From: Candidatus Moraniibacteriota bacterium
GTDB taxonomy: Bacteria > Patescibacteriota > Minisyncoccia > Moranbacterales > UBA11712
Length of the DNA stretch: 58,341 nt
Reading direction: 5' to 3'
Assembly: GCA_026396255.1 (NCBI GenBank)
Contig: JAPLXD010000006.1
Coordinates: forward strand, 1-58,341
Positions 39,907 to 55,064 of the stretch are shown piece by piece (position 1 is the stretch's first letter; the number at the start of each line of letters is the position of its first letter). The notes under the pieces were generated by a model, which worked only from the letters and a program-made list of their open reading frames with translations, was not told the origin of the DNA and searched no databases. Made by a program: the position numbers and the translations under genes.

Positions 39907-40527
39907 ATGAAGTCAGTACACATCTGTGTTTTTGGAGCCAGCATAACTTGGGGCGCGTACGACGCTGAAAAAGGCGGCTGGGTGGAGCGGCTGAAAATTC
40001 ATTTTTTCAACCAAGAGGATGAAAATTTTGCCAGTGTCTATAATCTCGCGGTTTCAGGCGCGACGGCAGAATATTTACTGAAAAGATTCGATGTCGAATG
40101 CGAAGCGCGAAGGCCGGATATTATTGTTTTTTCGATTGGAAATAATGATTCTCAGTTTTTAAAATCAGAGGATAGGAATCTAACTCCAATCGAAAAATTT
40201 CAGAAAAATATTGAAAAGCTGTACGAAAAATCCCTGAAATTCGCTGAAAAAATAGTTTTCATAGGATTAACCGGAGTTGATGAGGAGAAAACGAAGCCTG
40301 TCTATTGGAATGAAGATAGTTGGTATACAAATGAAGAGATAACGAAATACGATTCAGCTATTGAAAAATTTTGTCAGGAGAAAAATTTGAAATATGTCAG
40401 CTTGAAAGGAGTTTTGAAACCCGGCGATTGGGAAGATGGTCTGCATCCCAATGCAAAAGGGCACGAAAAAATATTCGAGAAAATAAAACCGGAAGTTTTG
40501 AGTATTTTTCAGGAAATTAAAGATTAA
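39907..40527 (+). CDS. SGNH/GDSL-type hydrolase
   Basis: Block I VFGASITWG, block III SIGNND, block V DGLHPN. Confidence 0.75.
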   Translation: MKSVHICVFGASITWGAYDAEKGGWVERLKIHFFNQEDENFASVYNLAVSGATAEYLLKRFDVECEARRPDIIVFSIGNNDSQFLKSEDRNLTPIEKFQKNIEKLYEKSLKFAEKIVFIGLTGVDEEKTKPVYWNEDSWYTNEEITKYDSAIEKFCQEKNLKYVSLKGVLKPGDWEDGLHPNAKGHEKIFEKIKPEVLSIFQEIKD

Positions 40528-40538
40528 ATCAAGAAAAA

Positions 40539-41009
40539 ATGGCGCAAAGCAATTATCAAGAGCCGATCGAGCAAAAGGATCTGGATCTGGCGAAAAAACT
40601 GAGAGAAGCGAATATTGACGCTGGGGAAAAAGAAACTATTCCGACCCCGGAAGTATCAAAAGAAGTCCAAGTTGAAACAATTGCGGAATCACCCGAAGAA
40701 AAAGTTTCCGAAAAAATTGAGACAGCCAGGCAGACCATTGGAACGCAGCAAGCGGCTCCGGCTGCAAATATTGCGAGCGATGCTCAGTCCGTCTCCGGAA
40801 TTGAAGAATTTGAGAAAAAGGTGGAAAAATTGGTCGAAATTGCCGGGAAATATGGACCGGAACACGCGATCCAGGTGGCGCAGCATATGGACAAAGGAAA
40901 AGATTCGGCGGCGGCCGACAACTATACTCTTGATGAGATTCATGATCGTTTGATGGAAGATGAACTCCGAAGTCAACTGATGCAGAAGGGACTTTTGACG
41001 GAATTATAA
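40539..41009 (+). CDS. hypothetical acidic protein (156 aa)
   Basis: ORF in the operon-like series. No motif recognised. Confidence 0.5.
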   Translation: MAQSNYQEPIEQKDLDLAKKLREANIDAGEKETIPTPEVSKEVQVETIAESPEEKVSEKIETARQTIGTQQAAPAANIASDAQSVSGIEEFEKKVEKLVEIAGKYGPEHAIQVAQHMDKGKDSAAADNYTLDEIHDRLMEDELRSQLMQKGLLTEL

Positions 41010-41032
41010 ATTTTCCAAAAACAAAAATAAAA

Positions 41033-43564
41033 ATGGATGCTTATAGTTTAAATTTAATATTATACCCTCTGGCCGGGCTGGCCGCGATTGTCTGTTTTGC
41101 CTCGGGCGCTCTTTTGGTATTCAAAAGTTTCATGGGTTTTCGCGGTCTGGTCACGCGGTCGCTCAATATGGATCTCGACGTGGTGAAAGTGAGCCGGCCG
41201 ATGAAGCGGGAAGCGCAAGGCGAACAGCAGCAACAGCCCAAATCGGAAAAAGAATTGATCTCGGTGATGGAGCATCTTTTCGCGAGTCTCGGGAACATCA
41301 AAGAAAAATCAAACATTTGGCATCGAATTATATATGGAGACGCGGTCGTAGCGCTCGAAATGGCCAATCCCGCCGACAATGACGAAATTTCCTTCTACGT
41401 CGGGGCGCCGAAAAAATTCATCAACATTGTCGAGCGGCAGATTCACAGCTTTTATCCCAAGGCCTCGATTGAACGGGTGAAAGACTACAATATTTTTTCT
41501 CCCGGCAGTTTCACAGCGGCTTCAAGCCTCACTCTCAAGGATAAGCATCATTTTCCGATCCGGACATATCAGACACTGGAAGCCGATCCTCTCAACAACA
41601 TCACGAACGTGCTTGGAAAGTTCGACGAGAAAAAGGAAGGGGCGGCCATCCAGCTTCTCATGAAACCGGCGCGGAGCGGCTGGCGGCAAAAAGGGAAGCA
41701 AGTCGCCCACAAAATGCAGCAGGGCCGGCAACTTTCGGATGTCAAAAGGGATACGATCGTGCGCCAGGTCGGCCGCGGACTGTTGAGCCTTTTTCATCAG
41801 AAAAAAGACAAACAGGAAGATATTTTGAAGCAAAACAAAGATGTCATCCAACTTACACCGGAAGAGCAGGAGGTGGTGAAAAAAATCGAAGGCAAAGCCG
41901 GAAAATCCGGTTTCAGCGTGAATATCCGTCTGGTGGCTTCGGCGCTCACTCAGGAGCGCTCGGAAGTGATTCTTTCCGAGCTCGAAAATGGCTTTATACA
42001 ATATGAAAATCCGGGACTAAACAGCTTCAAGGTTTTGCGCGAAGACAAGCGGCGTCCGAAGAATATCGCTTTTGATTTCATCTTCCGCAACTTTCGGAGC
42101 GACCAAAGTTTTGTTCTGTCTTCAGAGGAAATTGCCAGCGTTTTTCATTTTCCGCTGTTCTCGACCGAAACGCCTAAGATCGCCTGGCTCAAGGCCCGCA
42201 CGGCCGCCCCGCCTTCAAACATTTCGAAAGATGGCATCACGCTCGGCTTCAACGACTATCGCGGAGTGGAAACGGTGATTCGGCACGCAGAGGACGATCG
42301 ACGGCGCCACTTCTATGTCGTCGGACAAACCGGAACCGGAAAATCAACGATGATGGAAGAAATGGTGAAACAGGACATCAAAAACGGAAAAGGCGTGTGC
42401 GTTATCGATCCCCACGGAGAGTTTGTTGATCATGTGCTTGAATGTGTTCCGAAAGAACGGGCGGAGGACGTGATCTATTTCGATCCGGCGGACATGGAGC
42501 GGCCGTATGGGCTCAATATGCTTGAATTTGACCAAAACAAGCCGGAGCAAAAAACTTTTGTCATCAATGAAATGATCAATATCTTTGACAAGCTCTATGA
42601 TCTGCGCCAGACGGGCGGCCCGATGTTTGAACAATATATGCGCAACGCGGCCCTGCTCGTGATGGAACACCCGGATTCCGGTTCGACCTTGATGGAGATT
42701 CCGCGAGTCCTGGCCGATGAAGAATTTCGGCATTTGAAACTGTCGCATTGCACCAATCCGGTCGTCAAAAATTTCTGGGAAAAAGAAGCGGAAAAGGCGG
42801 GCGGGGAAGCGGCTCTCGCCAATATGGTCCCGTATATCACTTCGAAACTCACCCAGTTTATTTCGAACGATATGATGCGGCCGATCATCGCTCAGGAGAA
42901 ATCGACAATCAACTTTCGCCAGGCGATGGACAACCAGCAAATTATTCTAGTGAACCTTTCAAAGGGAAAGATTGGCGAAATCAACGCCAATCTCCTGGGA
43001 ATGATCATCGTTGGAAAAATATTAATCTCGGCACTTTCGCGGGTGGATATTTCAGAAAGCGAGCGCAAAGATTTTTATCTCTATATCGATGAATTTCAAA
43101 ACTTCACGACCGATTCGATCGCCCAGATTCTTTCGGAAGCACGAAAATATCGGCTGGCTCTAGTCATTGCTCATCAATTCATCGCCCAACTCAAAGAAGA
43201 AATTTCCAAGGCGGTTTTTGGAAACGTGGGATCGATTTGCTCATTTCGGGTGGGGGCGGAAGACGCGGAATTTCTGCAAAAGCAGTTTGAGCCGGTATTC
43301 GATGCGAATGATCTCATGAACGTGGACAATCACAACTGTTTCATGAAACTTTTGATCGCGAGCCAGGTCGCTTCGCCCTTCAATATGAAAACCTATCCGC
43401 CGACGGCCGGCTCGAAAGAGATCGCGGAAGCCATCAAGGAGCTTTCCAAATTGAAGTACGGGCGCAATCGTGATATAGTGAATGAAGAGATCTTGAAAAA
43501 ATCAAGTTTTGTTTCCGCTCCCGCTTCGGCTGACGCTTTTGATATGGGAGAAAAACCGATGTAA
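41033..43564 (+). CDS. membrane-anchored FtsK/HerA-superfamily ATPase, TraD/VirD4 (coupling-protein)-like
   Basis: N-terminal TM helix, Walker A VVGQTGTGKST, IDPHGEF, Walker B LYIDEFQNF, and ARKYRLALVIAHQFIAQL (TraG-D_C-like). Confidence 0.75.
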   Translation: MDAYSLNLILYPLAGLAAIVCFASGALLVFKSFMGFRGLVTRSLNMDLDVVKVSRPMKREAQGEQQQQPKSEKELISVMEHLFASLGNIKEKSNIWHRIIYGDAVVALEMANPADNDEISFYVGAPKKFINIVERQIHSFYPKASIERVKDYNIFSPGSFTAASSLTLKDKHHFPIRTYQTLEADPLNNITNVLGKFDEKKEGAAIQLLMKPARSGWRQKGKQVAHKMQQGRQLSDVKRDTIVRQVGRGLLSLFHQKKDKQEDILKQNKDVIQLTPEEQEVVKKIEGKAGKSGFSVNIRLVASALTQERSEVILSELENGFIQYENPGLNSFKVLREDKRRPKNIAFDFIFRNFRSDQSFVLSSEEIASVFHFPLFSTETPKIAWLKARTAAPPSNISKDGITLGFNDYRGVETVIRHAEDDRRRHFYVVGQTGTGKSTMMEEMVKQDIKNGKGVCVIDPHGEFVDHVLECVPKERAEDVIYFDPADMERPYGLNMLEFDQNKPEQKTFVINEMINIFDKLYDLRQTGGPMFEQYMRNAALLVMEHPDSGSTLMEIPRVLADEEFRHLKLSHCTNPVVKNFWEKEAEKAGGEAALANMVPYITSKLTQFISNDMMRPIIAQEKSTINFRQAMDNQQIILVNLSKGKIGEINANLLGMIIVGKILISALSRVDISESERKDFYLYIDEFQNFTTDSIAQILSEARKYRLALVIAHQFIAQLKEEISKAVFGNVGSICSFRVGAEDAEFLQKQFEPVFDANDLMNVDNHNCFMKLLIASQVASPFNMKTYPPTAGSKEIAEAIKELSKLKYGRNRDIVNEEILKKSSFVSAPASADAFDMGEKPM

Positions 43565-43587
43565 ATATAATTTTTGATATTTCTATT

Positions 43588-43761
43588 ATGGACCAGCACG
43601 ATATGCAGACGGAAAAAACAGATGAAGAAGAAACGCTCGATCCGCATTGCGCAACTTGCAATATGCCATTGAGAAAAGCGGAGGATTTCGGGACGGATTC
43701 CGAGGGCGAGAAGAGCGAAAAATATTGCTGCCATTGTATGCAGGGCGGAAATATGCTTTGA
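43588..43761 (+). CDS. 57-aa zinc-ribbon protein
   Basis: CATCNMPL..DFGTDSEG..KYCCHC matches the 'putative zinc ribbon' pattern CxxCgMPL...G.....YCxxC. Below the ORF-track size cut-off. Confidence 0.55.
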   Translation: MDQHDMQTEKTDEEETLDPHCATCNMPLRKAEDFGTDSEGEKSEKYCCHCMQGGNML

Positions 43762-43812
43762 GTGATAGATAATATTTTATATTACTCTAAAAACTAGAAA
43801 GAGAGGTGTACT

Positions 43813-43947
43813 ATGACTGACGATATGAATCCAGTGACTCCCGTTGAGCCGATGGCTCCGGAAGCTCCGGTCGAACCAGTAATGCCGGCGGAACCAACTC
43901 CGGAAGCTCCGGTTGAGCCTATGACTCCGCCGCCAGCAGCCGAGTAA
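43813..43947 (+). CDS. 44-aa proline-rich acidic peptide
   Basis: AGAGAGG RBS. Sequence is MTDDMNPVTPVEPMAPEAPVEPVMPAEPTPEAPVEPMTPPPAAE. A weak hairpin with T-run follows. Confidence 0.4.
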   Translation: MTDDMNPVTPVEPMAPEAPVEPVMPAEPTPEAPVEPMTPPPAAE

Positions 43948-44042
43948 TTTTTCGAAATTTCTCATCAAAAAAGCCAGCCGAGAGGGACCGGCTTTTTTGT
44001 TTGCATAAAAAAAATAACCGCCGGGGCAGTGCCAAGGCGGGG

Positions 44043-44357
44043 TTAAGCTGCTGATTTTCTTTCTCCCCGCATTTTTGCGAGTCCGCGGCGGATAAGGGGA
44101 TCCACCTCATTGATCAAGTCGTCAAGATTTTCGAAATCGAGTTGTCTAACCAACTTGTCATTGAAATCAATTTCATTGTCCGTAATTTTGCGAAGAACCT
44201 CTGCAATTTCCGAATTGGGAATACCGTCTTCGAGATTCGGGCTGCTAGCGAGAACATTCAAAACTCGAGCGGCTATCGTATTCGCAATAGCAGAACGGTT
44301 TTCGGCCCGAATTTTTGCCATATTATCCGTTATTCTTTTCTTTTCCAATCGGCTCAT
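44043..44357 (-). CDS. hypothetical 104-aa protein downstream of DUF763
   Basis: Its start lies 1 nt after the DUF763 stop. A hairpin with T-run follows on the minus strand. Confidence 0.55.
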   Translation of the reverse strand: MSRLEKKRITDNMAKIRAENRSAIANTIAARVLNVLASSPNLEDGIPNSEIAEVLRKITDNEIDFNDKLVRQLDFENLDDLINEVDPLIRRGLAKMRGERKSAA

Positions 44358-44358
44358 A

Positions 44359-45564
44359 TTATTTCAGTCTCCCAATTATCTTATTTTTCTCACTATATCC
44401 AATTTTCATCTTGGACGCAAGCGTTTGCATAGTGGCAATTGTTTGGTCATATGTCGGGCGATCGACGGGGTAGGGGATGAAATCTTTTCCGCCGTGGGCG
44501 AAGGAATAACGGGCCGGATCTTCATAGGAAGCTTTCGCGCCGTAAATAACTTCCGCTGTCAGCGCCAAAGCTCTGATGGTCTTTGGCCCGACGCCTTTCA
44601 AAGATAAAAGCTGTTCATAATTTTTCGGCTTGACTACATTCACTTCGTATAATATTTTTTCCAAATACTTGCTTTTGGTGAAATCCTCCGTGATGACGGG
44701 CAACACCTTGAAATCGCGGTCATGCAGGTGTATTTTGGTGAGTTCTTGATTCTCGTTTCCAACCGAGATCACTTCGCTTTGAGCTGTTGAGTGGTCGCGC
44801 AGAATGGAGATCGGATCTCCATCGGGGAGATCCGATCTCCGAGGAGTCGCGTATTTGCTCAATAATGCTAGATCTTTCATGAGAGTATTATAGCTTCCTT
44901 GAACGAGCTCTGTGCTGATTTTTTGGGTGTTTTCGCTTTCTCTGGCGGTCATATTGAGCCCGGTGTGCTGGCCGTCCGAAATAATCCCGCTGTGCGGTTC
45001 AATCACTAGGTTCTTTACTTCGTCCGAGAACCAGTGATAGCGTCGCGCCGTCACCTCTTTTTCGTTCATGCCTTGTTGAACGACGGCCCACGTGCCGTTG
45101 CGTGAGAAAAAGAAGCAGTGATGATAAATCTGGAACCCGTCCTGGACGAGGGAAGAATCGACTTTCGCCGCCATCCGGGAATTGTATTCGAGCGAATTTA
45201 TTTTTTCCTGCGAGAGTTCGGCTCGCGCGCCGAAGAGTGAAATTTGCTCCGGAGTTTTGAGCGACGCTTTGCCTTTCCCGCCACAAATATATATTCCCAA
45301 ATCTCTTTCCTCGCCGCGGATAGCCTCTTTCAAAGCCGCGGTTAAAATAGTGATGAGTCCCGACGCGTTCCAGTCAAAAGCGAGCACCGTTCCGAGCGCC
45401 TGAAACCAGACCGGATCGGCGATCCGTTTCACAAACTCATCCGGCCCATATTCGGCAATGATGACCCGTGACATCTCCCGTCCCAGTTTCACCATCCGTT
45501 CGAACAGCCATTTGGGGCACTTGCCATAGTCAAGAGTGAAGGTGGCAATTCCGCGCTTGAACAT
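44359..45564 (-). CDS. DUF763-family protein with helix-hairpin-helix-like C-terminal motif
   Basis: N-terminus GKCPKWLFERMVKLG...DPVWFQALGTVLAFDWNASG is typical of DUF763 as I recall it. LLSLKGVGPKTIRALAL is HhH-like. Confidence 0.7.
   Translation of the reverse strand: MFKRGIATFTLDYGKCPKWLFERMVKLGREMSRVIIAEYGPDEFVKRIADPVWFQALGTVLAFDWNASGLITILTAALKEAIRGEERDLGIYICGGKGKASLKTPEQISLFGARAELSQEKINSLEYNSRMAAKVDSSLVQDGFQIYHHCFFFSRNGTWAVVQQGMNEKEVTARRYHWFSDEVKNLVIEPHSGIISDGQHTGLNMTARESENTQKISTELVQGSYNTLMKDLALLSKYATPRRSDLPDGDPISILRDHSTAQSEVISVGNENQELTKIHLHDRDFKVLPVITEDFTKSKYLEKILYEVNVVKPKNYEQLLSLKGVGPKTIRALALTAEVIYGAKASYEDPARYSFAHGGKDFIPYPVDRPTYDQTIATMQTLASKMKIGYSEKNKIIGRLK
44816..44850. repeat. twin-palindrome element in frame in the DUF763 gene
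   Basis: GGAGATCGGATCTCC-atcgg-GGAGATCCGATCTCC. Translated on the minus strand as RRSDLPDGDPIS. Confidence 0.9.
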
Positions 45565-45608
45565 ACTATCACTATATCACTATATTATGAATTATGCTAG
45601 TCTGTATA

Positions 45609-45637
45609 TGGACATTTCAATTTTCTGCGTATATAAT
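45609..45637 (+). promoter_or_regulatory. sigma70-like promoter ending 8 nt before the uvrB ATG
   Basis: TGGACA-N17-TATAAT. There is no SD sequence in the 8-nt gap. Confidence 0.5.
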
Positions 45638-45645
45638 AATTGAAC

Positions 45646-47685
45646 ATGAAATTTCAAATATCTTCCAAGTTTAAACCCGATGGAGACCAACCGCGTGCGA
45701 TCAAGCAATTGACCGCGGGTCTTCGGCGTGGGGATAAGTTTCAGACGCTTCTCGGTGTGACCGGGTCGGGAAAGACTTTTACTATTGCCAACGTCATTGA
45801 AAATGTGCGAAAACCCACGCTGGTGATTGCGCCGAACAAGACGCTGGCGGCGCAACTCGCGCAGGAATTTCGGACATTTTTCCCCAAAAACGCGGTGGAA
45901 TATTTTGTTTCCTATTATGATTACTATCAGCCGGAAGCGTATATTTCTTCATCCGACACATATATCGAAAAAGAATCCCAGATCAACGACGAGATTGACC
46001 GGCTACGCCACGCGGCCACGGTGGCGGTGATGTCGCGGCGTGACGTGGTCATTGTTGCTTCGGTATCGTGCATATACGGTCTCGGTTCACCCGAATACTA
46101 TTCCGAAATTTCTTTGAGCCTCAAAATCGGCGAAGCGATTGACCGGCAAAAGCTCATCAAAGACCTCACGGAGATGCATTTTCTCCGCTCGGAGCATTTG
46201 TCCCGCGGAAAATTTCGCTCTCACGGAGAGACGGTTGAAATAATGTCTCCATCCCGGGAAATCGTGACAAGAATAGAACTCAAGAATGATAAAATAGCGA
46301 AAATCAGCGAATATGATTTTTTGACCGGCGAAGCGCTGGGAAACCTGGAAAAAGCTTTGATCTATCCGGCGAAGCACTTTGTTGTTCCGGAGCCGGTGAT
46401 GCAGGACGCTCTCCTGGAAATTGAAAAAGAACTCGACGAGCGCGTGGTATATTTCAAAAAGAACAATAAATTGCTCGAAGCCGAGAGGATATACCGCCGG
46501 ACAAAGCAGGATCTCGAAATGATGCGGGAAATCGGATACTGCAACGGAATTGAAAACTATTCCCGATATCTGACCGGCCGCGCGCCGGGTGAAGCGCCGT
46601 ATACCTTGATCGATTATTTTGCCCGCCTCGACTCGCCGTCTCGGCGAGGCTGGGCCAAAAATTTCCTCATTGTTATTGACGAATCACACGTGACCGTTCC
46701 CCAGCTCAACGGGATGTATAACGGCGACCACGCGCGCAAATATGCGCTGATTGACAACGGTTTCCGCCTTCCGAGCGCTTATGACAACCGGCCATTAAAG
46801 TTTAAAGAGTTTGAGGATAAGATTAGTCAAGTGATATTTACATCCGCTACACCGGGAAATTATGAATTAGTGCAAAGTGCAAAGTGCAAAGTGCAAAATT
46901 ACAGTTCAAAATTAAAAGTTGATGAAAGATGCGTAGTCGAGCAGATAATTAGACCTACAGGGTTAGTAGATCCAGAGTTAGTGATTAAACCAGCGAAGGG
47001 GCAAGTTAAAGATGTAATAAATGAAGTGAAAAAAGTAATTGAAAAGAAAGAAAGAGTATTAATCACGACGCTCACCAAAAAAATGTCCGAAGATCTTTCG
47101 GATTTTCTCAAAGAAAGCCAGATAAAAGCCGAATATTTGCATTCAGGAGTGGATACGATGGAGCGGGTGCGCATTTTGGAAAGTTTACGCCGAGGAAAAT
47201 TCGATGTGCTTGTAGGCGTGAACTTGCTCCGCGAAGGCTTGGATTTGCCGGAAGTTTCGCTCGTCGCTATTCTTGACGCGGACAAAGAAGGGTTTTTGCG
47301 CAGTGAAACTTCACTCATCCAGACCATCGGCCGGGCGGCGCGGAATATTTCCGGACGGGTGATTTTATACGCCGACCATATCACCGGCTCGATGAAACGG
47401 GCGATTGACGAGACAAATCGCCGGCGCGAAACGCAGACGAAATACAATAAAAAACATCACATCACGCCGCAAACGATCAAGAAAAAAATCGAATCAATCA
47501 TCGATCACGAACTGAAACCCGAAATCCCGCGCGAATTTGTGAAATTGGAATCGCTTGAGGATATCGCCGGCTATATCAAGCAAAAAGAAACCGAAATGAA
47601 AACCGTCGCCCGGAATATGGAATTCGAAAAAGCGGCGGTGATTCGGGATGAGATAATTCAGCTCCGGAAGTTGCAGATGAAGTAA
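45646..47685 (+). CDS. uvrB: excinuclease ABC subunit B
   Basis: FKPDGDQPRAI, GVTGSGKT, helicase motifs, and a C-terminal UVR domain EFEKAAVIRDEIIQLRK. Confidence 0.95.
   Translation: MKFQISSKFKPDGDQPRAIKQLTAGLRRGDKFQTLLGVTGSGKTFTIANVIENVRKPTLVIAPNKTLAAQLAQEFRTFFPKNAVEYFVSYYDYYQPEAYISSSDTYIEKESQINDEIDRLRHAATVAVMSRRDVVIVASVSCIYGLGSPEYYSEISLSLKIGEAIDRQKLIKDLTEMHFLRSEHLSRGKFRSHGETVEIMSPSREIVTRIELKNDKIAKISEYDFLTGEALGNLEKALIYPAKHFVVPEPVMQDALLEIEKELDERVVYFKKNNKLLEAERIYRRTKQDLEMMREIGYCNGIENYSRYLTGRAPGEAPYTLIDYFARLDSPSRRGWAKNFLIVIDESHVTVPQLNGMYNGDHARKYALIDNGFRLPSAYDNRPLKFKEFEDKISQVIFTSATPGNYELVQSAKCKVQNYSSKLKVDERCVVEQIIRPTGLVDPELVIKPAKGQVKDVINEVKKVIEKKERVLITTLTKKMSEDLSDFLKESQIKAEYLHSGVDTMERVRILESLRRGKFDVLVGVNLLREGLDLPEVSLVAILDADKEGFLRSETSLIQTIGRAARNISGRVILYADHITGSMKRAIDETNRRRETQTKYNKKHHITPQTIKKKIESIIDHELKPEIPREFVKLESLEDIAGYIKQKETEMKTVARNMEFEKAAVIRDEIIQLRKLQMK
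46869..46896 (+). repeat. AGTGCAA x4 heptanucleotide tandem repeat in frame in uvrB
   Basis: Four perfect tandem copies lie within an AT-rich patch (46793-47063). Confidence 0.9.
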
Positions 47686-47698
47686 CAGTTCAAACTTC

Positions 47699-47727
47699 TT
47701 GATTCACTTGGCTGAAAATGTTATAAT
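47699..47727 (+). promoter_or_regulatory. consensus sigma70-like promoter for the flavoprotein-cupredoxin cluster
   Basis: TTGATT-N17-TATAAT. Confidence 0.6.
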
Positions 47728-47753
47728 TAAAGTAGTTTTGTAAGGTTAAATTA

Positions 47754-48449
47754 ATGGCGAAATTGAAACTTTTGGGAATTTCCACTTCCGCCAGGGGCCG
47801 GGAATCAAATAGCTATCACCTGCTCAACAGAGCCTTTGAGAAACTGGCAGACGGGGAAATCGAAAAAGAAATCATCGTCGCCTCCGAACTTAAGCTTCTC
47901 CCGTGCCGTCATCACTATTCAATCAACGCCAAAATGTGCGTTCATCCTTGTTTGATTACCCAGACGGACAAAAGCGACGAGATGAAGAAAATATACGATG
48001 GGATATTGTCAGCTGACATGGTGATTTTTTCCACTCCCATTTATTGGGGAAACCATTCGCAACTCATGCAGCTTATTATCGAACGCCTCAATTCGTTGGA
48101 AAATTCAAATTCGGTTCATAAAAAAGTGTTGGTGAAAAACAAAGTGGCCGGAATGATGATTTTGGGACACGAAGACGGGTATCAGCATGTGGCGGGAGGA
48201 CTCATGAATTTTCTGACAGAACTGGGAATGATTTTTCCGCCTCAAGCCTACGCTGCTTGGGTCGGAGAGAGCAATGAAGATACCAAATCAGATCGAAAAA
48301 GAATAGAAACTGATTCTACGATTTTCGAGCAGTTTGACGATTTGGTGAATAATGTCGTCAATTTTTCCAAAAAAATTCTTATTTGCTCCGATTGCGGCGA
48401 AAAGCTTGATTATGAGCATCTTTCCAAGAAGAAACTTTATAAAAAATAA
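47754..48449 (+). CDS. flavodoxin-fold NAD(P)H-dependent FMN reductase / iron-sulfur flavoprotein-like
   Basis: LLGISTSARGRESNSY, Cys cluster PCRHH..CVHPC, and VIFSTPIYWGN. Confidence 0.7.
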   Translation: MAKLKLLGISTSARGRESNSYHLLNRAFEKLADGEIEKEIIVASELKLLPCRHHYSINAKMCVHPCLITQTDKSDEMKKIYDGILSADMVIFSTPIYWGNHSQLMQLIIERLNSLENSNSVHKKVLVKNKVAGMMILGHEDGYQHVAGGLMNFLTELGMIFPPQAYAAWVGESNEDTKSDRKRIETDSTIFEQFDDLVNNVVNFSKKILICSDCGEKLDYEHLSKKKLYKK

Positions 48450-48463
48450 TTTTGCGTCCAGAA

Positions 48464-48700
48464 ATGAAAAAACCCGAAAATAATCAAGACAATTTTTCCG
48501 GGTGTATTTGCCTCGATTGCTCCCTTTTCACTTCTTGCAATCAAAAAAAGAACGAGAAATTATTCTGCGCCCGGAAGAAATCAGATTGCGAAATGGACTC
48601 TCAGAAAATGTGCATTTGCGGAATGTGCCCGATATACAGCGAGAACGAACTTTCCGGAGGGTATTTTTGCATCAATGAAATAGTTGAAGAAAAAGCCTAG
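48464..48700 (+). CDS. small Cys-rich protein, DUF2769-like
   Basis: CICLDCSLFTSC..LFCARKKSDC..CICGMCP..YFC pattern. Confidence 0.55.
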   Translation: MKKPENNQDNFSGCICLDCSLFTSCNQKKNEKLFCARKKSDCEMDSQKMCICGMCPIYSENELSGGYFCINEIVEEKA

Positions 48701-48724
48701 CCTAATTCAATAAGCGCAAATCAA

Positions 48725-49105
48725 ATGAAAAAAAGTGCAAGTCTGATCCTGGCCGTCTCGGCCGTCTTCTTTTTGGGCGGCTGTGGATATCAAGCCAGCA
48801 AACAAATACCGCCGGTTCAAATTCCAGGCCAATCGGCGCAAACAGGCGCAAGCACTGTCGGAGAGGCAAGCACGGTGGCTATCAAGAATTTTTCTTTCAG
48901 TCCCAGTACGCTCACTGTGAAAGCGGGGACGACGGTAACTTGGACCAATGAGGATAGCGCGGCGCATACGATAAAATCGGACACTTTTGGTTCGGGAGAG
49001 TTGAGCAACGGCCAACAATTTGATTTCAAATTTGAAAAGGCCGGAAGTTTTGATTATAGCTGCGCGATTCATCCATCAATGACAGGCAAGATAATTGTTG
49101 AATAA
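48725..49105 (+). CDS. cupredoxin-fold (plastocyanin/amicyanin-like) lipoprotein
   Basis: Lipobox FLGGCG, VTWTNEDSAAHT, and YSCAIHPSMTGKIIV (His/Cys/His/Met copper ligands). Confidence 0.75.
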   Translation: MKKSASLILAVSAVFFLGGCGYQASKQIPPVQIPGQSAQTGASTVGEASTVAIKNFSFSPSTLTVKAGTTVTWTNEDSAAHTIKSDTFGSGELSNGQQFDFKFEKAGSFDYSCAIHPSMTGKIIVE

Positions 49106-49116
49106 TTTTGCAAACA

Positions 49117-49341
49117 ATGAATATATTGGCACATTTGGCCTATTATCAAATTTTGGGCAAGCCCGTTTTGATGTATTCGGGAATTTTGACTTTGACTTCT
49201 TTCATGTTCACCGCCTTGATTCCGATTCTCAATCAAAAGGGCATTCACAAGATTCCCTTTTCGTGGCACTCGCGAATGGCAAAATTGTCATTTGCTTTGG
49301 TAATTATCCACGCCGTGCTGGGATTGTCGGTTTATTTTTGA
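49117..49341 (+). CDS. small membrane protein (2-3 TM)
   Basis: Directly follows the cupredoxin gene and is hydrophobic throughout. Confidence 0.5.
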   Translation: MNILAHLAYYQILGKPVLMYSGILTLTSFMFTALIPILNQKGIHKIPFSWHSRMAKLSFALVIIHAVLGLSVYF

Positions 49342-49344
49342 GGA

Positions 49345-49416
49345 ATGGAAAAATTCGAAAAAGCAGCGGTGATTCGAGATGAAATTGTGCAATTGAGGAA
49401 AGTGCAGATGGGGTAA
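49345..49416 (+). pseudogene. relic of a uvrB 3' end (UVR-domain tail)
   Basis: MEKFEKAAVIRDEIVQLRKVQMG* compares with the uvrB tail MEFEKAAVIRDEIIQLRKLQMK* (47617-47685). That is 19/22 aa identical, with many synonymous nucleotide differences. Confidence 0.65.
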
Positions 49417-49485
49417 GAAAAGTTGCAAATTACGTTTAAGTTTGCTAGGTTTATTTTATCAAATACGAGAGAGGAGGCACATTAT

Positions 49486-49730
49486 ATGTGTCAGATGATG
49501 AAGCCGAAAGAATTAGACGAGAAGATTTTCGCCATCGTAACCGAAGCCTGTGGCAAAGATAATCTTCTAAAGTACATGGATGTGCAGAAAAAGTCTTAAA
49601 AAGCCACCCCGACCAGGTTGGAAAAAATGACGTAAAATTTTCGGTCAAACGACTGATGGACAGCGGTCGGCTGAAGTATGCCTATCTCGGTGGCAGCTTC
49701 CTGGTAACGCCAGAGTGGAGGGATCGGTAA
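49486..49730 (+). pseudogene. small winged-helix-like gene split by a -1 frame change at G AAA AAG
   Basis: GAGAGGAGG RBS. Frame 0 gives MCQMMKPKELDEKIFAIVTEACGKDNLLKYMDVQKKS*. The -1 frame continues VLKSHPDQVGKNDVKFSVKRLMDSGRLKYAYLGGSFLVTPEWRDR*. Confidence 0.45.
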
Positions 49731-49838
49731 AATTTTCCCAGAGACTTGTTCTCTGGTGGGGCATTCCTGGTTGGGATGCCTCTTTTTTTATAACAACTGA
49801 AATTGATTTATTAACTCAATAGTATTATATTGAAGAAA

Positions 49839-49920
49839 CCCCCGCACCGAAATAGGTCGGTGTGTATAAGTGCCAATTTGGGGTAAGTTTTTGTATTTGC
49901 GAAATAAATTTGGTGCGGGG
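49839..49920. repeat. CCCCGCACC inverted-repeat element (copy 5)
   Basis: CCCCGCACCGAAAT ... AATTTGGTGCGGGG followed by CAAGC. TTGATT-N17-TATATT (49803-49831) lies directly upstream. Confidence 0.7.
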
Positions 49921-49975
49921 CAAGCCTTAAATGGGGCATTTTTGTGTTAGGTAAAGAATCATTCAGGGAAAATCA

Positions 49976-50031
49976 AAGGTTCGACCTTTCCCTTGTCGGC
50001 TGTCACCTCCAATTCCTCAAGGTCGAACCTT
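49976..50031. repeat. 56-bp element with inverted termini (copy 2), 10 nt upstream of the uvrA ATG
   Basis: Same ends and same length as 691-746, with a different 17-nt core. Confidence 0.8.
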
Positions 50032-50041
50032 GAAGAAATCT

Positions 50042-53020
50042 ATGGATAAAATAATCATAAAAGGCGCCAGGGAGCACAACCTGAAGAACATCGACCTCGA
50101 ACTTCCGCGGGGGAAGTTTATTGTGTTCACGGGGATCAGCGGGTCAGGGAAATCGACTTTGGCTTTTGATACCATTTTTGCCGAAGGTCAACGTCGTTAT
50201 CTCGAAAGTCTTTCGAGCTATGCCCGGCAGTTTTTGGGTCAGATGGAAAAACCGGACGTTGATTCGATCGAGGGCTTGAGCCCGGCGATTTCCATTGACC
50301 AGAAAGCGTCGTCGCACAATCCGCGCTCGACGGTGGGGACGGTGACGGAAATTCATGACTACTTGCGGCTTCTCTATGCCAAAATTGGCCGGCCGCATTG
50401 TCCGGTTTGCGGAAAAGAAATTTCGAAACTGTCGATTGATGAGATTGTGGATCGGATTATCGATATGTGCGCGAGTTGCAAAAATCCCCCTCAATCCCCC
50501 TTTAAAAAAGGGGGAGGAGCGAGTTCTTCTCCTTTGAAAAAGGAGGGGTTAGGGGAGGATTTTAAAATTGAAATTCTTTCACCGGTGGTGCGGGAGCGAA
50601 AAGGCGACTATGCGACCTTGCTCGCGGAGATGTGGAAACGCGGATTTGCCGAAGCCTATGTGGACGGGAAAAAAGTGATTCTGGAGGAAGAAGCCAAAAA
50701 AGGCAAGATATTGGCGAGATACAAAAAACACAGCATTGATATTTTGATTGACACGGTGGAGGTAAACGACAAAAATATCAGCCGAATTTTTGAAAGCACG
50801 GAAAGCGCGCTCAAGCTTTCAAAAGGACTTGTTAAGATAAAATCCCAATTTCAAAATCCAAATGTCAAATCAAATCCAAAATCCAAAATCCAAAAAAGTG
50901 ATGAGTATAAAGAAGTTATTTATAATCAGAATTTAGCTTGCGCAGAGCACGAAGAAGCTATTTTTCCCGAGCTTGAGCCGCGGCTGTTTTCTTTCAACAG
51001 TCCGCAGGGGGCGTGTCCGGCTTGCGAAGGACTGGGGACAAAAAAAGAAATTGATCCCGGTCTCATCATTCCGGACAAAACCCGGACGATTGCCGAAGGG
51101 GCGATCATGCCTTGGAGCTACAAGCCGAACAACTATCAAGGCTCGATCTTGCGCGCGGTGACAAACTATTATCGCATACCGGACAATGTGCGTTTCCGGG
51201 ATCTCTCCGAGAAGCAGCAAAATATTCTGCTTCACGGCGATGAAGAGCCGGATGATATCGAAGTTCGCTTTCGGACCAAAACCGGGGCAGTTTGGAGATT
51301 TAATGTTGAGTGGAACGGGATTTTGGGTTTCATGCGCGACCGCTATTTCAAGACCGAATCCGAAAACGTGCGGCAGGACATCGAAAAATATATGTCACCG
51401 AGCAAATGTCCGGCCTGCAAAGGTTCACGGTATAAGCCGGAAGCATTGCTTATCACAGTGGGAAATAAAAATATTTCTGAAATTTCGGAGGTGAGCGTGA
51501 ATAAAACACTGAAATTTTTCGAGGGTATCAAATTAAACGAACGGGAAAAAATAATTGCGGACAAGATTTTGAAAGAAGTGAAAAATCGCCTGAAATTTTT
51601 GGAAGATGTGGGTTTGGGATATCTCACTCTGGCTCGTTCGGCGAATACGCTCGCGGGCGGAGAAACACAGAGAATTCGCCTGGCTTCTCAAATCGGCTCG
51701 CAACTGGTCGGAGTCCTCTATATTCTCGACGAGCCATCAGTCGGTCTTCACGCAAGAGATAATAAAAAATTGCTGGAAACATTGTTGAAATTGAGAGATA
51801 TCGGCAACACGGTGATTGTCATTGAACACGATGAAGAGACGATCCGAGCGGCCGATCATTTGGTGGATATCGGCCCCGGAGCCGGGCGTCTTGGCGGAGA
51901 AATCGTAGCCGAGGGGACGGTAAAAGATATTGAAAAAGAGAAAAAATCCATCACAGGAAAATATTTGCGGGGAGACTCAAAAATAGAAATTCCCAAATTT
52001 CGCCGTCCGGTTAAAAACAAAAAATGGCTCACCGTCAAAGGAGCGACAGAACACAATCTCAAAAGCATAACCGTTGAATTTCCTTTGAAAACATTGACTT
52101 GCGTGACAGGTGTTTCGGGGTCAGGGAAATCAACGCTAGTTGAAGATATTCTGGGAAAAGGTTTATCGGTGAAGATTATGAGAAGCCTTGAGCGGCCGGG
52201 CCGGCACAAAGAAATTCTTGGAACGCAATATGTGGACAAAGTGATCCACATCGACCAGTCTCCGATCGGGCGCACGCCGCGCTCGAACCCGGCAACTTAT
52301 GTCGGATTTTTCACACTGATCCGCGAACTTTTCGCGATGACGAAAGACGCGCGGGGGCACGGCTATGGCCCGGGACGTTTTTCTTTCAATGTGAATGGGG
52401 GACGGTGCGACAATTGTCGAGGAGAGGGATTTTTGAAAGTGGAAATGCAGTTTATGCCGGACGTTTTTTTGCCGTGCGATGTTTGCAAAGGAAAAAGATA
52501 CAACCGCGAAACGCTGGAAGTGAAGTATAAAGGCAAGAATATCGCCGATGTGCTCGCGATGACGGTTTCGGAGGGAAAAGAATTTTTTGAAAACTATCCG
52601 CGGATCTTCGAACCGCTGAAAGTCCTGGAAGAAGTGGGGCTGGGGTATATCAATCTTGGACAGGCGGCGACGACGCTTTCCGGCGGAGAAGCGCAGAGGA
52701 TCAAATTGGCGTCGGAACTTTCGCGGCGGATGACGGGGAACACTTTATATATTCTCGACGAGCCGACCACCGGGCTGCACTTCGATGATGTGAAAAAACT
52801 TTTGAACGTCCTGCATCGCCTGGTGGACGCGGGGAACACGGTGATTGTGATTGAGCACAATATGGATGTCATCAAAACCGCCGATTGGATCATCGACCTC
52901 GGTCCCGAAGGGGGAGACCTCGGCGGCCGCGTGATTGTCACCGGTCCGCCGGAAGAAGTGGTGAAATATCATCAGGAAAGCTATACGGGGAAGTTTTTGA
53001 GGGAAGTGTTGAAAAAATGA
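50042..53020 (+). CDS. uvrA: excinuclease ABC subunit A
   Basis: Starts MDKIIIKGAREHNLKNI. Two ABC modules (GISGSGKST, GVSGSGKST, LSGGE x2). The ORF-track TTG 50030 lies inside the repeat. Confidence 0.95.
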   Translation: MDKIIIKGAREHNLKNIDLELPRGKFIVFTGISGSGKSTLAFDTIFAEGQRRYLESLSSYARQFLGQMEKPDVDSIEGLSPAISIDQKASSHNPRSTVGTVTEIHDYLRLLYAKIGRPHCPVCGKEISKLSIDEIVDRIIDMCASCKNPPQSPFKKGGGASSSPLKKEGLGEDFKIEILSPVVRERKGDYATLLAEMWKRGFAEAYVDGKKVILEEEAKKGKILARYKKHSIDILIDTVEVNDKNISRIFESTESALKLSKGLVKIKSQFQNPNVKSNPKSKIQKSDEYKEVIYNQNLACAEHEEAIFPELEPRLFSFNSPQGACPACEGLGTKKEIDPGLIIPDKTRTIAEGAIMPWSYKPNNYQGSILRAVTNYYRIPDNVRFRDLSEKQQNILLHGDEEPDDIEVRFRTKTGAVWRFNVEWNGILGFMRDRYFKTESENVRQDIEKYMSPSKCPACKGSRYKPEALLITVGNKNISEISEVSVNKTLKFFEGIKLNEREKIIADKILKEVKNRLKFLEDVGLGYLTLARSANTLAGGETQRIRLASQIGSQLVGVLYILDEPSVGLHARDNKKLLETLLKLRDIGNTVIVIEHDEETIRAADHLVDIGPGAGRLGGEIVAEGTVKDIEKEKKSITGKYLRGDSKIEIPKFRRPVKNKKWLTVKGATEHNLKSITVEFPLKTLTCVTGVSGSGKSTLVEDILGKGLSVKIMRSLERPGRHKEILGTQYVDKVIHIDQSPIGRTPRSNPATYVGFFTLIRELFAMTKDARGHGYGPGRFSFNVNGGRCDNCRGEGFLKVEMQFMPDVFLPCDVCKGKRYNRETLEVKYKGKNIADVLAMTVSEGKEFFENYPRIFEPLKVLEEVGLGYINLGQAATTLSGGEAQRIKLASELSRRMTGNTLYILDEPTTGLHFDDVKKLLNVLHRLVDAGNTVIVIEHNMDVIKTADWIIDLGPEGGDLGGRVIVTGPPEEVVKYHQESYTGKFLREVLKK
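50481..50563. repeat. 83-bp composite hairpin element in frame in uvrA
   Basis: Outer inverted repeat AAAATCC/GGATTTT, with inner hairpins TCCCCCTTT-AAA-AAAGGGGGA and CTCCTTT-GAA-AAAGGAG. Translated as NPPQSPFKKGGGASSSPLKKEGLGEDF. Confidence 0.85.
50854..50892 (+). repeat. AAATCCA heptanucleotide tract in frame in uvrA
   Basis: Three perfect tandem copies lie at 50872-50892, preceded by degenerate copies. Translated as QNPNVKSNPKSKIQK. Confidence 0.85.
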
Positions 53021-53023
53021 TTT

Positions 53024-54307
53024 ATGAATTACGATTTAAGAATTAAGAATAAAATATTCAACCTTCCCAAATCTCCCGGCGTGTACGAATTTCGTGATAA
53101 ACAAGGGAAAATTCTTTATATCGGGAAAGCGACATCGCTCAAGGATCGGGTAGGGAGTTATTTTCGCTCCCAAAGTTCAACTTTAGGAGCGCCTAAAGTT
53201 GAACTTTTAGTGTCCCAAATCGCCGACATCAAAATTCATGAAACGGATTCGGTGCTGGAAGCTTTGATCTTGGAATCCAATCTCATCAAAAAGCACCAGC
53301 CGAAATATAATGTGATGGCGAAAGACGACAAGAGTTTCGGCTATTTCGTGATCACCCGCGCACCAAAGCACAGCTTGGTGCGGGGCAAGGCTTCAGAAGA
53401 ATTTCCGCGAGTTGTTATTCTGAGAAAAACAAACTTAGGAACTGTATCGGCAAAAAGAATTTATGGTCCGTATTTATCAAAGCGACAGATGGAGATCGCA
53501 TTAAAAATAATTCGTAAAATATTTCCCTTTCACTCCATCAAAGCCAAAACGGAAAAGGGTTGTCTTGATTTCCAGATCGGGCGGTGTCCGGGACCGTACG
53601 CGGATGCGATCAGCAAAAAAGACTATCTTAAAAATATCCACGGGATAGAGATGATTTTACAGGGGAAAAAGAAAGGCTTGCTCACCGAGCTCAAAAAACA
53701 GATGAGAACATATTCAAAGAATAGCGAATTTGAAAAGGCGGCCGAAGCGCGGAATCGGATCTTCGCGCTTGAGCATATTCGGGACGTGGCGTTGATATCA
53801 AAAGATATGGCTGGAGATTCGATCTCCACAAGGGAGATCGAATCTCCATTACGTATCGAAGCGTATGATATTTCAAACATCGGCGGAGATTTTGCCGTAG
53901 GCTCCATGGCAGTCTTTAAAAACAACCATCCGAACAAGAGCCAGTACCGGAAATTCAAGATAAAAAACGTGTCCGGAGTTGATGATGTGGCAATGATGCG
54001 CGAAATGCTGCGACGGCGTTTCCAAAACGATTGGCCTTTGCCGGATATCATTTTTGTCGATGGGGGAAAGGGACATCTCAATATGGCGGAGAATGTCGTC
54101 AGCGAGTTCGGCCATAATATCCCCGTTGTCGGCGTCGCCAAAGGGCCGACGCGCAAAAAACTGGATATGTATCACGGCAAAGAAGCTTTGATTTTCCAAA
54201 ACATCATCAGCGATGAAAAATTGGTCGAAAGAATTCGCAACGAAGCCCACCGCTTTGCGATCAGCTATCACAAGAAACTACGGAGAAAAAATTGGAAAGA
54301 CAAATAA
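53024..54307 (+). CDS. uvrC: excinuclease ABC subunit C, short form lacking the C-terminal (HhH)2 domain
   Basis: GIY-YIG (GVYEFRDKQGKILYIGKA), UVR (EFEKAAEARNRIFALEHI), and endonuclease-domain block IEAYDISNIGG. 427 aa. Confidence 0.85.
   Translation: MNYDLRIKNKIFNLPKSPGVYEFRDKQGKILYIGKATSLKDRVGSYFRSQSSTLGAPKVELLVSQIADIKIHETDSVLEALILESNLIKKHQPKYNVMAKDDKSFGYFVITRAPKHSLVRGKASEEFPRVVILRKTNLGTVSAKRIYGPYLSKRQMEIALKIIRKIFPFHSIKAKTEKGCLDFQIGRCPGPYADAISKKDYLKNIHGIEMILQGKKKGLLTELKKQMRTYSKNSEFEKAAEARNRIFALEHIRDVALISKDMAGDSISTREIESPLRIEAYDISNIGGDFAVGSMAVFKNNHPNKSQYRKFKIKNVSGVDDVAMMREMLRRRFQNDWPLPDIIFVDGGKGHLNMAENVVSEFGHNIPVVGVAKGPTRKKLDMYHGKEALIFQNIISDEKLVERIRNEAHRFAISYHKKLRRKNWKDK
53172..53207. repeat. 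36-bp palindrome in frame in uvrC
   Basis: AAAGTTCAACTTTAGG-agcg-CCTAAAGTTGAACTTT. Confidence 0.9.
53355..53385. repeat. miniature CCCGCGCACCAA/TTGGTGCGGGG inverted repeat in frame in uvrC
   Basis: It shares the right arm plus flank TTGGTGCGGGGCAAG with the intergenic CCCCGCACC elements. Confidence 0.7.
53813..53847. repeat. twin-palindrome element in frame in uvrC
   Basis: GGAGATTCGATCTCC-acaag-GGAGATCGAATCTCC. Translated as GDSISTREIESP. Confidence 0.9.
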
Positions 54308-54327
54308 CAGCCATATAAATAAAAACA

Positions 54328-54357
54328 AAACCTCTCAAAGCCTTTCGGGAGGTTTTT
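54328..54357. terminator. bidirectional terminator between uvrC and the DUF378 gene
   Basis: AAACCTC-N14-GAGGTTT, flanked by an A-run and a T-run. Confidence 0.65.
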
Positions 54358-54391
54358 AAAATTGATATTTATTTTTTATTCTTTTGTTTTC

Positions 54392-54607
54392 CTATTCGCC
54401 TTTGTCACCGGCCATCGAAAACTTCCAGAAAACCATGTAGAGAGCGGAGAGTCCAACAAGGGCATAGATCACTCTCGTCAGTCCGGACATGGCGCCGAAA
54501 ATGGCCGCGACCAGATTATAGTTGAAAAATCCGATCAAGCCCCAATTCAAACCGCCGATGATCACGAGGATCACTGCAATCCAGCTCACGGGATTCATTT
54601 TCTTCAT
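54392..54607 (-). CDS. DUF378-family small membrane protein
   Basis: IGGLNWGLIGFFNYNLVAAIFG..RVIYALVGLSA, with a GGGAGGTG RBS. Confidence 0.75.
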   Translation of the reverse strand: MKKMNPVSWIAVILVIIGGLNWGLIGFFNYNLVAAIFGAMSGLTRVIYALVGLSALYMVFWKFSMAGDKGE

Positions 54608-54682
54608 TTCTATTTCACCTCCCTTCTTTGCGCATATACTAGCATAAAAAAAGCACCCATGTAAGGGCGCTTTTTTCAGAAA

Positions 54683-54805
54683 CTATTCTTTATCCGGGCC
54701 GCAGGGATGGCCGCAGTGGGAGCAACCACAGTGGGACTCTTTTTCGTCCGAACCGCACTTGCAGTTTTCCATCGGCTGACCGCAGCCGGGGCATTTCTCG
54801 TCCAT
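54683..54805 (-). CDS. 40-aa Cys/His-rich peptide (metallothionein-like)
   Basis: MDEKCPGCGQPMENCKCGSDEKESHCGCSHCGHPCGPDKE* has 9 Cys and 3 His. GC-rich relative to its flanks. No clear SD sequence. Below the ORF-track cut-off. Confidence 0.4.
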   Translation of the reverse strand: MDEKCPGCGQPMENCKCGSDEKESHCGCSHCGHPCGPDKE

Positions 54806-54866
54806 ATAAAATTATTTAATTCTTAAGCGCAACAGCTATTACGAATTTTTTTATTTCGTCTTTCAA

Positions 54867-55064
54867 CTATATCCCCAGTGTTGAATTCAGGGTTTTCAGG
54901 AAGTAAGGGATCACAAAAGCCAGAGCGATGAGCGGCAAGACAAACAACACAACCGTGCCAACCATCGTCCAAAAAAACAGACTCCAGGTTTTTTGAGCCA
55001 AAACACGGGTTTCTTCAACTTTTTGTTCCAGTCGATTTAATTTTTCAAGAAGATCTTGATCCAT
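54867..55064 (-). CDS. small hypothetical protein with C-terminal TM hairpin
   Basis: N-terminal coiled segment followed by WSLFFWTMVGTVVLFVLPLIALAFVIPYF. Confidence 0.5.
   Translation of the reverse strand: MDQDLLEKLNRLEQKVEETRVLAQKTWSLFFWTMVGTVVLFVLPLIALAFVIPYFLKTLNSTLGI

Follow-up and report, generated by a model that had tools for sequence, protein, structure and literature searches.

The region between uvrB and uvrA in the window (i.e. the whole stretch of 58,341 nucleotides analysed here, from a Candidatus Moraniibacteriota bacterium) raises the question of why the 3′ end of uvrB is present twice and how a cassette of four genes came to lie between the two copies. An earlier reading of this DNA, made from its letters only (the sequence-only reading), had proposed that a cassette had recombined into the uvrB 3′ end. 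Insertion is supported by an empty site in relatives and by a second tail copy that is colinear with their DNA; no integrase was found, and the scar of tail, cassette and displaced tail was probably made by homology-facilitated illegitimate recombination (HFIR), a one-sided process anchored in uvrB. The gene and its two 3′ ends are the following.

45640-47685, + strand: uvrB, an intact open reading frame (ORF) of 681 aa with Pfam UvrB, UvrB_inter, Helicase_C and UVR domains.
47617-47685, + strand: tail copy 1 (tail 1), the functional uvrB 3′ end, i.e. its last 22 codons (MEFEKAAVIRDEIIQLRKLQMK and stop), of the 'ATA ATT' haplotype.
49345-49416, + strand: the relic, a second tail copy of 72 nt (MEKFEKAAVIRDEIVQLRKVQMG and stop) with one added AAA codon and one unique L-to-V change.

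The recurrence of the tail at 49345-49416 was borne out in its coordinates and translations, relic and tail 1 being identical in 19 of 22 amino acids with the AAA codon extra in the relic. A repeat search paired positions 47621-47685 with 49352-49416 (65 nt, 78% ungapped identity, starts 1731 nt apart). Alignment of both copies at the nucleotide level, as the sequence-only reading had proposed, showed 55 of 69 nt identical and 14 of 69 positions different once the extra codon was taken out; the longest exact run common to the two was 13 nt. On both strands of the 58-kb window the relic scored 51/65 nt against 36/65 for the runner-up position, and the best of 100 shuffles likewise reached 36/65. 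A nucleotide profile made from 28 Moranbacteria uvrB tails was scored on the relic and on the UVR motifs within uvrC genes. It gave 46.3 bits (E 1.6e-12) on the relic and at most 19 bits on the uvrC motifs, the window's own uvrC motif reaching 7.3 bits (E 2.5). Since the uvrC motifs scored at chance level, the relic is specifically a uvrB tail, and the possibility raised beforehand, that the similarity is no better than that among UVR motifs in general, did not hold. Against the Pfam UVR model (PF02151, gathering score 21.5) the relic scored 23.0 bits, covering only model positions 18-35 of 36. Its derivation from the uvrB tail specifically was shown by the profile score together with its colinearity with the intact tails of the relatives L086 and L087 (compared loci and contigs are given by L numbers). 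The differences between the two tails were largely synonymous, as had been noted from the sequence: by the Nei-Gojobori method 8.5 synonymous and 5.5 non-synonymous changes were counted (pS 0.66, pN 0.10). An assembly artefact was ruled out because six independently assembled Logan contigs from other sequencing runs were 100% or 99.9% identical to pieces of window positions 47418-49587, and one of them, L080, covered tail 1, cassette and relic in one piece. UvrB of the window shared 87-90% aa identity with Moranbacteria UvrB, and a database search with the window uvrB led to Candidatus Moranbacteria/Moraniibacteriota genomes at 70-87% aa identity. Exact look-up of the window UvrB and of the membrane protein encoded last in the cassette gave no match.

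Comparison with relatives revealed the uninterrupted site. The 139-kb contig L087 is syntenic with window positions 40345-55830 at 78-82% nt identity, and in both L087 and L086 an intact uvrB is followed by a small gene and then by uvrA, without the cassette. When searched with blastn, the window tails at 47680 and 49352 both landed on the single L087 tail at 7862-7921. The relic, a promoter-like site, a ribosome-binding site and the small gene matched, position by position, the uvrB tail of L086 and L087 and the DNA that comes after it. Because both tails map to one L087 tail and the relic is colinear with the DNA downstream of it, the window corresponds to an L087-like locus plus 1.73 kb, i.e. 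an extra uvrB tail and the cassette. The window arrangement is an insertion, in agreement with the sequence-only reading, which had pointed to the uvrB-uvrA spacers of related genomes as the place to look for an empty site. In two further relatives, L001 and L007, uvrB and uvrA are separated by 74 bp consisting of the uvrA promoter and leader alone. The resident DNA downstream of the relic contains the following features.

49417-49485, + strand: resident intergenic DNA after the uvrB stop, with a promoter-like site TTGCAA-17-TAGGTT at 49423-49451, then a GGAGG ribosome-binding site.
49486-49730, + strand: resident small gene, frameshifted by a 1-nt deletion at about 49589/49590; the gene was reconstructed, and the missing base shows in the alignment with L086 and L087.
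49758-49782, + strand: intrinsic-terminator-like hairpin with a T run, the first terminator past the cassette promoter.
49796-50029, + strand: uvrA promoter and leader ('P element'), with TTGATT-17-TATATT at 49803-49831 and two hairpin inserts.
50030-53020, + strand: uvrA, an ORF of 996 aa.

The site TTGCAA-17-TAGGTT would, judged from its letters, act as a promoter. Homologues of the small gene lie directly after uvrB in L086 and L087, where they are intact and 78-81 aa long (P0121, 88% identity; P0122, 84%); the gene is without a Pfam family. Its inactivation may have come later than the insertion, which altered its transcriptional context. The P element is homologous to the DNA directly 5′ of uvrA in L001, L002, L003, L005, L007, L009, L023 and L026.

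The cassette between the two tails consists of a promoter and four tightly packed genes.

47699-47727, + strand: cassette promoter TTGATT-17-TATAAT with extended TG, near consensus, 13 nt past the uvrB stop, found by promoter scan.
47754-48449, + strand: gene 1, a flavodoxin-like NADPH-dependent FMN reductase of 231 aa (Pfam FMN_red, E 4e-17).
48452-48700, + strand: gene 2, a Cys-rich DUF2769 protein of 82 aa (Pfam DUF2769, E 5e-14).
48725-49105, + strand: gene 3, a cupredoxin-like protein of 126 aa with N-terminal signal and lipobox-like LGGC (Pfam Cupredoxin_1, Copper-bind).
49108-49341, + strand: gene 4, a His-rich two-helix membrane (2-TM) protein of 77 aa without a Pfam family.

The description of a four-gene cluster with its own consensus promoter between the tails was therefore accurate. 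The promoter region is kept in an alignment with the related cassettes of L041 and L038, and the lipobox, read off the translation, suggests that gene 3 encodes a lipoprotein. The TGA stop of the 2-TM gene lies 3 nt ahead of the relic ATG, in the same frame, so that the junction at 49339-49350 reads TGA followed by GGAATGGAA. No terminator-like site was found between cassette and relic, the first one past the cassette being that at 49758-49782. More than 120 homologues of the FMN reductase were found in Patescibacteria at 65-97% identity. In 39 metagenome loci the FMN reductase and DUF2769 genes were nearly always neighbours, often accompanied by the cupredoxin and 2-TM genes in varying order. 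Together the four genes make up a genuine redox module, conserved and common across Patescibacteria; outside the window, L038, L041 and L070, it was found in many contexts without a uvrB tail. Pfam scans detected no recombinase, integrase or transposase among the four cassette genes or their neighbours within about 10 kb on either side, which upholds the earlier statement on the absence of an integrase. In the visible parts of this cassette in L038, L041 and L070, gene calling likewise showed no recombinase. Genes near the block were DUF763, a TraG-like ATPase, a GDSL lipase, uvrA, uvrC and dnaX.

The origin of the two tails was approached through their haplotypes. The states of tail 1 (ATA ATT) are those of the functional tails of L086, L009, L007 and L026, and the states of the relic (ATT GTG .. 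TTG AGG AAA) are those of the functional tails of L087, L041 and L023; unique to the relic are only the AAA insertion and one L-to-V change. The locus holds a foreign haplotype, and because the tail differences amount to two haplotypes that both occur in functional uvrB genes elsewhere, duplication in situ followed by drift is excluded. The low pN and high pS between the copies and the occurrence of the relic states in functional tails also agree with the earlier view of a once-functional, independently evolved uvrB tail. As functional tails in other species show nearly all of its states, the relic must have lost its function only a short time ago.

As for which copy came in, the sequence-only reading had allowed either that the incoming DNA supplied a replacement tail or that the resident tail was displaced, and both appear to apply. 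In L041 uvrB and its tail are attached 5′ of the same cassette, and in L038 a 36-codon uvrB tail lies 5′ of the cassette with no uvrB upstream. Because the cassette keeps a 5′ uvrB tail in these two, and with the relic contiguous with resident DNA, tail 1 probably arrived with the cassette and the relic would be the displaced resident tail. L041 and L070 share the arrangement of the window, and in none of them is the relic part of a longer ORF, an outcome that would have spoken against a displaced tail. In L038 (region 2-724) the tail (AQKEAEMKTAARNMEFEKAAVIRDEIIQLRKLQMG and stop) was called as a gene with a UVR domain and is preceded by an unrelated Big_13-domain gene and followed by the cassette. 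It could represent another displaced tail stacked on the first, what is left of a deleted uvrB, or the product of a chimeric contig; the Big_13-domain gene upstream of it had no counterpart in the window or at any compared locus. For annotation, short UVR 'genes' called downstream of uvrB, such as this 36-aa call, should be regarded as scars.

The cassette had been expected to turn up elsewhere beside uvrB-like tails, and it did so in L041, L038 and L070. With the window, four lineages carry it, and pairwise nt identity among them is 82-87.5%; between window and L070 the cassette genes show dS 0.6-0.8. In L070 a relic follows directly after the 2-TM gene, with the 2-TM/relic junction at the same place as in the window. 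Its first ~20 nt are scrambled, the start codon is missing and the stop codon is lost; the relic frame differs from that of the 2-TM gene, whose homologue ends in TAA. Over the shared 51 nt the window and L070 relics differ in the manner of coding sequence, with pS 0.75 and pN 0.05, i.e. with 2 changes at 39 non-synonymous sites against ~17 expected under neutral decay. The DNA past the L070 relic (ORF106) is unrelated to that of the window and colinear with the post-tail DNA of L089 and L090, L089 comprising at least 50 uvrB codons. Because the downstream DNA of L070 matches L089/L090 and that of the window matches L086/L087, the same cassette and junction are present in two resident backgrounds. 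This is explained most economically if a single illegitimate event came first and a relic later recombined with a functional tail in one or more ordinary homologous crossovers. On one side of such a crossover the cassette would enter a new genome, and on the other side new downstream DNA would enter the cassette locus. The relic would thereby have served as a homology arm in later exchanges, and crossovers of this kind would explain why the relics look young though the cassette lineages are old.

Also in L070, downstream of ORF106 (1880-2200), a promoter-like site is followed by a GC-rich stretch of ~300 nt that ends in a terminator-like hairpin. This stretch contained no ORF, had no Rfam match at gathering thresholds and gave no transfer-messenger RNA (tmRNA) with ARAGORN; it may be an undescribed non-coding RNA of the Candidate Phyla Radiation (CPR).

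A second, independent event was found in L003, where a 130-aa ORF and a copy of the uvrA promoter element had been inserted and the uvrB tail was duplicated over 98 nt at 90% identity. The copy of the promoter element is 66 nt long, 86% identical to the resident copy, and ends the insert, indicating that the insert is a piece of another uvrB-uvrA spacer allele. The cargo of L003 is unrelated to the cassette of the window. Counted back from the stop, the left boundary of the displaced tail is at 72 nt in the window, at ~85 nt in L003 and at ~108 nt in L038. Post-tail DNA of L002 was aligned with post-relic DNA of L003, and this intergenic alignment was too diverged to judge whether the L003 relic is native. 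Among ~25 relatives the uvrB-uvrA spacer varies in length between 74 bp and 5.2 kb, and its cargo differs by lineage, comprising thioredoxins, DsbA-like proteins, LexA, YafQ toxin and unknown genes. The spacer is a recurrent recombination hotspot.

The cargo of the spacers of L002, L003, L008, L011-L014, L020, L022 and L031 was enriched for thiol/redox functions, i.e. thioredoxins, DsbA-like proteins of 355-379 aa and the FMN reductase/cupredoxin module. A LexA-like repressor was present in the spacer of L008 and a YafQ/ParE toxin pair in that of L022. Such cargo suggests that stress genes and nucleotide excision repair may be regulated together.

Under HFIR, the ancestral locus of the Candidatus Moranbacteria (Patescibacteria) host would have been uvrB, small gene, uvrA. 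The incoming segment, from a related lineage, would have carried the 3′ part of uvrB with its own last 22 codons, the promoter and the four-gene redox module. Its left end would have paired homologously inside the highly conserved uvrB, which served as the anchor, while its right end, at the stop codon of the 2-TM gene, would have been joined illegitimately just 5′ of the recipient's last 22 codons. The expected outcome is an intact uvrB with an imported tail, the cassette, and then a 72-nt non-functional relic on native downstream DNA; one-sided recombination of this type would need no integrase. The cassette would now lie between two uvrB homologies, the gene body with its tail to the left and the relic to the right, and would be exchangeable by crossover within the relic, which may account for the same cassette and junction in two resident backgrounds.

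Several points weigh against this course of events. Colinearity is silent on which copy was imported: tail 1 is contiguous with a resident-like uvrB and the relic with the downstream DNA. L038, which bears on the direction of import, is a single 2.3-kb metagenome contig and may be a chimera. A donor sequence is lacking, so that the illegitimate joint and any microhomology are not open to inspection. Sliding-window identity along uvrB, with 10 and then 6 relatives, resolved no breakpoint, the relatives being 13-25% diverged and too far for such a test. All three independent junctions fall in the last 110 nt of a 2-kb gene, and an added assumption is therefore required, namely that longer duplications are unstable and that joints past the stop leave no trace. 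Finally, the good preservation of the relic could reflect selection on a micro-ORF.

Four other explanations were weighed. In a Campbell-type integration, a circle with one uvrB tail and the cassette would have entered by a single RecA-dependent crossover in the 70-nt tail, both copies would be hybrids, and excision would be the reverse reaction. The topology would be the same, with direct repeats around the cargo and no integrase; the fresh, functional-like 3′ part and the older 5′ part of the L070 relic would be explained, and both tails indeed carry haplotypes known from functional genes. The L038 tail of 36 codons is, however, longer than the 23-codon relic that a circle formed from tail 1 and relic would carry, and the L003 insert ends in a uvrA promoter copy, as would a linear piece of another spacer allele. 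A single crossover within 70 nt at ~80% identity is expected to be very inefficient. No circular junction was seen in any contig, although no search was aimed at one. On balance this explanation was considered unlikely. Insertion into the 3′ end of a conserved gene, with restoration of that end and att repeats left behind, is the habit of many integrative elements, and a degenerate or cis-mobilisable element (CIME-/IMEX-like) with an att site in the uvrB 3′ end and a recombinase acting in trans would fit this habit, as would the tail that travels with the cassette in L038 and the recurrence of tail-duplicating insertions at uvrB (window and L003). Yet no integrase was found in the block, within ~10 kb on either side or in the cassette parts of L038, L041 and L070, the repeat boundaries vary (-72, -85, -108), the longest exact match is 13 nt, the unrelated L003 cargo ends with a uvrA promoter copy, and away from uvrB the four-gene module is found in numerous settings that have no tail, all of which makes site-specific integration quite improbable. 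IMG/VR viral contigs, searched with a degenerate uvrB-tail pattern, gave no match and no sign of a phage attP.

Selection could also have kept the relic as a 23-aa half-UVR peptide, translated by re-initiation or by read-through of the TGA. In the window it is an intact ORF from ATG to TAA, in frame with the 2-TM gene and 3 nt past its TGA; the divergence between relic and tail is of the coding type, and the relics of L003 and L038 are intact ORFs as well. The L070 relic, on the other hand, lacks a start codon and no longer has a stop, is in another frame than the 2-TM gene and is closed off by a TAA that precedes it. In the window no spacing is left between the GAGGA motif and the ATG, the peptide would supply just one helix of the UVR hairpin, the second (Pfam positions 18-35 of 36), and RNA structure was not significant (z -0.31); a selected micro-ORF was accordingly regarded as highly improbable. 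Read-through of TGA or an alternative code was tried and rejected, UvrA, UvrB and UvrC being full length without in-frame TGA under translation table 11, with the L070 2-TM gene ending in TAA and its relic out of frame. A structured-RNA or terminator role of the relic region was rejected as well, the fold being no better than that of shuffled sequence. Searches with Rfam at gathering thresholds in the window, L003, L038 and L070 returned only tRNAs. Local duplication of the uvrB end in tandem, or duplication of a long target site on insertion, after which the copies diverged in situ, would account for same-orientation direct repeats around an insert. This explanation is effectively refuted: the 14 differences among 69 positions fall in blocks that match two functional haplotypes of other species, pS between tail 1 and relic (0.66) exceeds the pS of 0.41-0.50 between cassette-bearing lineages while pN is only 0.10, and a relic drifting for that long would be unrecognisable.

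HFIR, the reading preferred here, has been described as homology on one side combined with an illegitimate join on the other (PMC3240628) and is known from natural transformation and conjugation in Acinetobacter, S. pneumoniae, P. stutzeri and E. coli (PMC3240628; references cited in PMC5361080). The uvrB scar is alike in combining one homologous anchor with one illegitimate join, without mobility genes, with variable junctions and with cargo unrelated to the anchor. A filled and an uninterrupted site in syntenic relatives, the lack of an element recombinase and the variable junctions all correspond to what an HFIR scar should show. It differs in that the process was here inferred from scars in uncultivated Patescibacteria and not observed, and in that the join lies within the 3′ end of the anchor gene itself, so that 51-108 nt were duplicated and recipient DNA was not deleted. 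HFIR-like displacement of old 3′ ends into 'orphan' arrays has been proposed for type VI secretion system (T6SS) and Rhs loci (Kirchberger et al. 2017, PMC5361080). At the orphan 3′ ends of Rhs, contact-dependent inhibition (CDI) and T6SS loci, as here, a module with an upstream gene part and cargo pushes the old 3′ end downstream, events can stack and no integrase takes part. In contrast, uvrB is a housekeeping repair gene with an invariant tail, the cargo is of redox genes, and the displaced piece has neither a matching immunity gene nor an obvious selective value; a polymorphic toxin, variable 3′ ends and immunity genes, which mark such arrays, were not found, and the geometry alone is common to both.

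Elements that target 3′ ends (islands in tRNA, tmRNA and protein genes, integrative and conjugative elements, CIMEs) likewise produce a direct repeat of the gene end and keep the gene intact by a replacement end. The uvrB locus differs from them in having no integrase, no fixed core or boundary, only 1.7 kb of cargo and a second event with unrelated cargo; features of an integrase-mediated element, i.e. a linked tyrosine or serine recombinase, an identical att core and constant boundaries, were absent. Nor did it resemble an integron cassette, there being no attC-like fold at the cassette end (z -0.31), no integrase and no Rfam match. Gene-gain hotspots flanked by core genes, such as capsule loci that are exchanged via conserved flanks, are well known. 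They resemble the uvrB-uvrA spacer in that its cargo varies by lineage and its conserved flanks permit homologous exchange, but here the scale is 0.07-5 kb, the genomes are reduced CPR genomes and the internal relic forms a third homology segment.

The scar is thus of a known kind, that of HFIR and of the orphan 3′ ends at toxin loci, and not a new genetic system, although it is unusually well documented; the use of a displaced housekeeping-gene tail as a portable homology arm seems mildly novel. With a core DNA-repair gene as the anchor of recombination, an uncultivated CPR bacterium appears to have acquired a redox module of four genes together with a promoter, and to have done so without mobile-element machinery. 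The insertion is backed by the empty site, by the filled site in several lineages and by two resident backgrounds, and gives direct genomic evidence that recombination has driven gene flow among Moranbacteria lineages separated by 13-20% divergence. The uvrB-uvrA spacer is marked as a small hotspot for stress- and redox-related cargo. More tentatively, the unit of tail, cassette and relic might be an integrase-free mobile island with its own homology arms, the 3′ part of uvrB on the left and the 50-70-nt displaced tail on the right. If so, related cells that take up the island would insert the cassette precisely at their own uvrB end by RecA and would produce a fresh relic each time, and if this were general in Patescibacteria, displaced gene ends would be both footprints and vehicles of cassette spread in reduced genomes.

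Several smaller inserts were observed in the genes around the cassette. In uvrA, at window positions 50481-50563, an imperfect palindrome of ~83 nt (AAAATCCCCCTCAATCCCC ... GGGGTTAGGGGAGGATTTT) is inserted in frame and adds ~28 residues (..KNPPQSPFKKGGGASSSPLKKEGLGEDF..) that are not present in UvrA of L003. In-frame palindromic elements are known from Rickettsia, and by analogy the uvrA insert seems to resemble them. Two in-frame insertions in uvrB are not found in L087, L003 and L007, i.e. one of 11 aa at 46618-46655 (RLDSPSRRGWA), which overlaps a 14-nt hairpin, and one of 16 aa at ~46870-46920 (KCKVQNYSSKLKVDER). The uvrA leader contains a hairpin insert at 49833-49925 (arms CCCCGCACCGAA/TTTGGTGCGGGG), common to L005 and L023, and another at 49972-50031 (arms AAGGTTCGACCTT/AAGGTCGAACCTT), common to L023; neither is present in L001 and L007. 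A copy of the second hairpin, 82% identical, lies at window positions 687-746. Both leader inserts look like small elements of the miniature inverted-repeat transposable element (MITE) or repetitive extragenic palindromic (REP) type. A TraG/VirD4-like coupling ATPase of 843 aa is encoded at window positions 41033-43564, 2 kb upstream of uvrB, and is syntenic in L087; ATPases of this kind are typical of CPR genomes, and this one may be relevant to DNA uptake or transfer.

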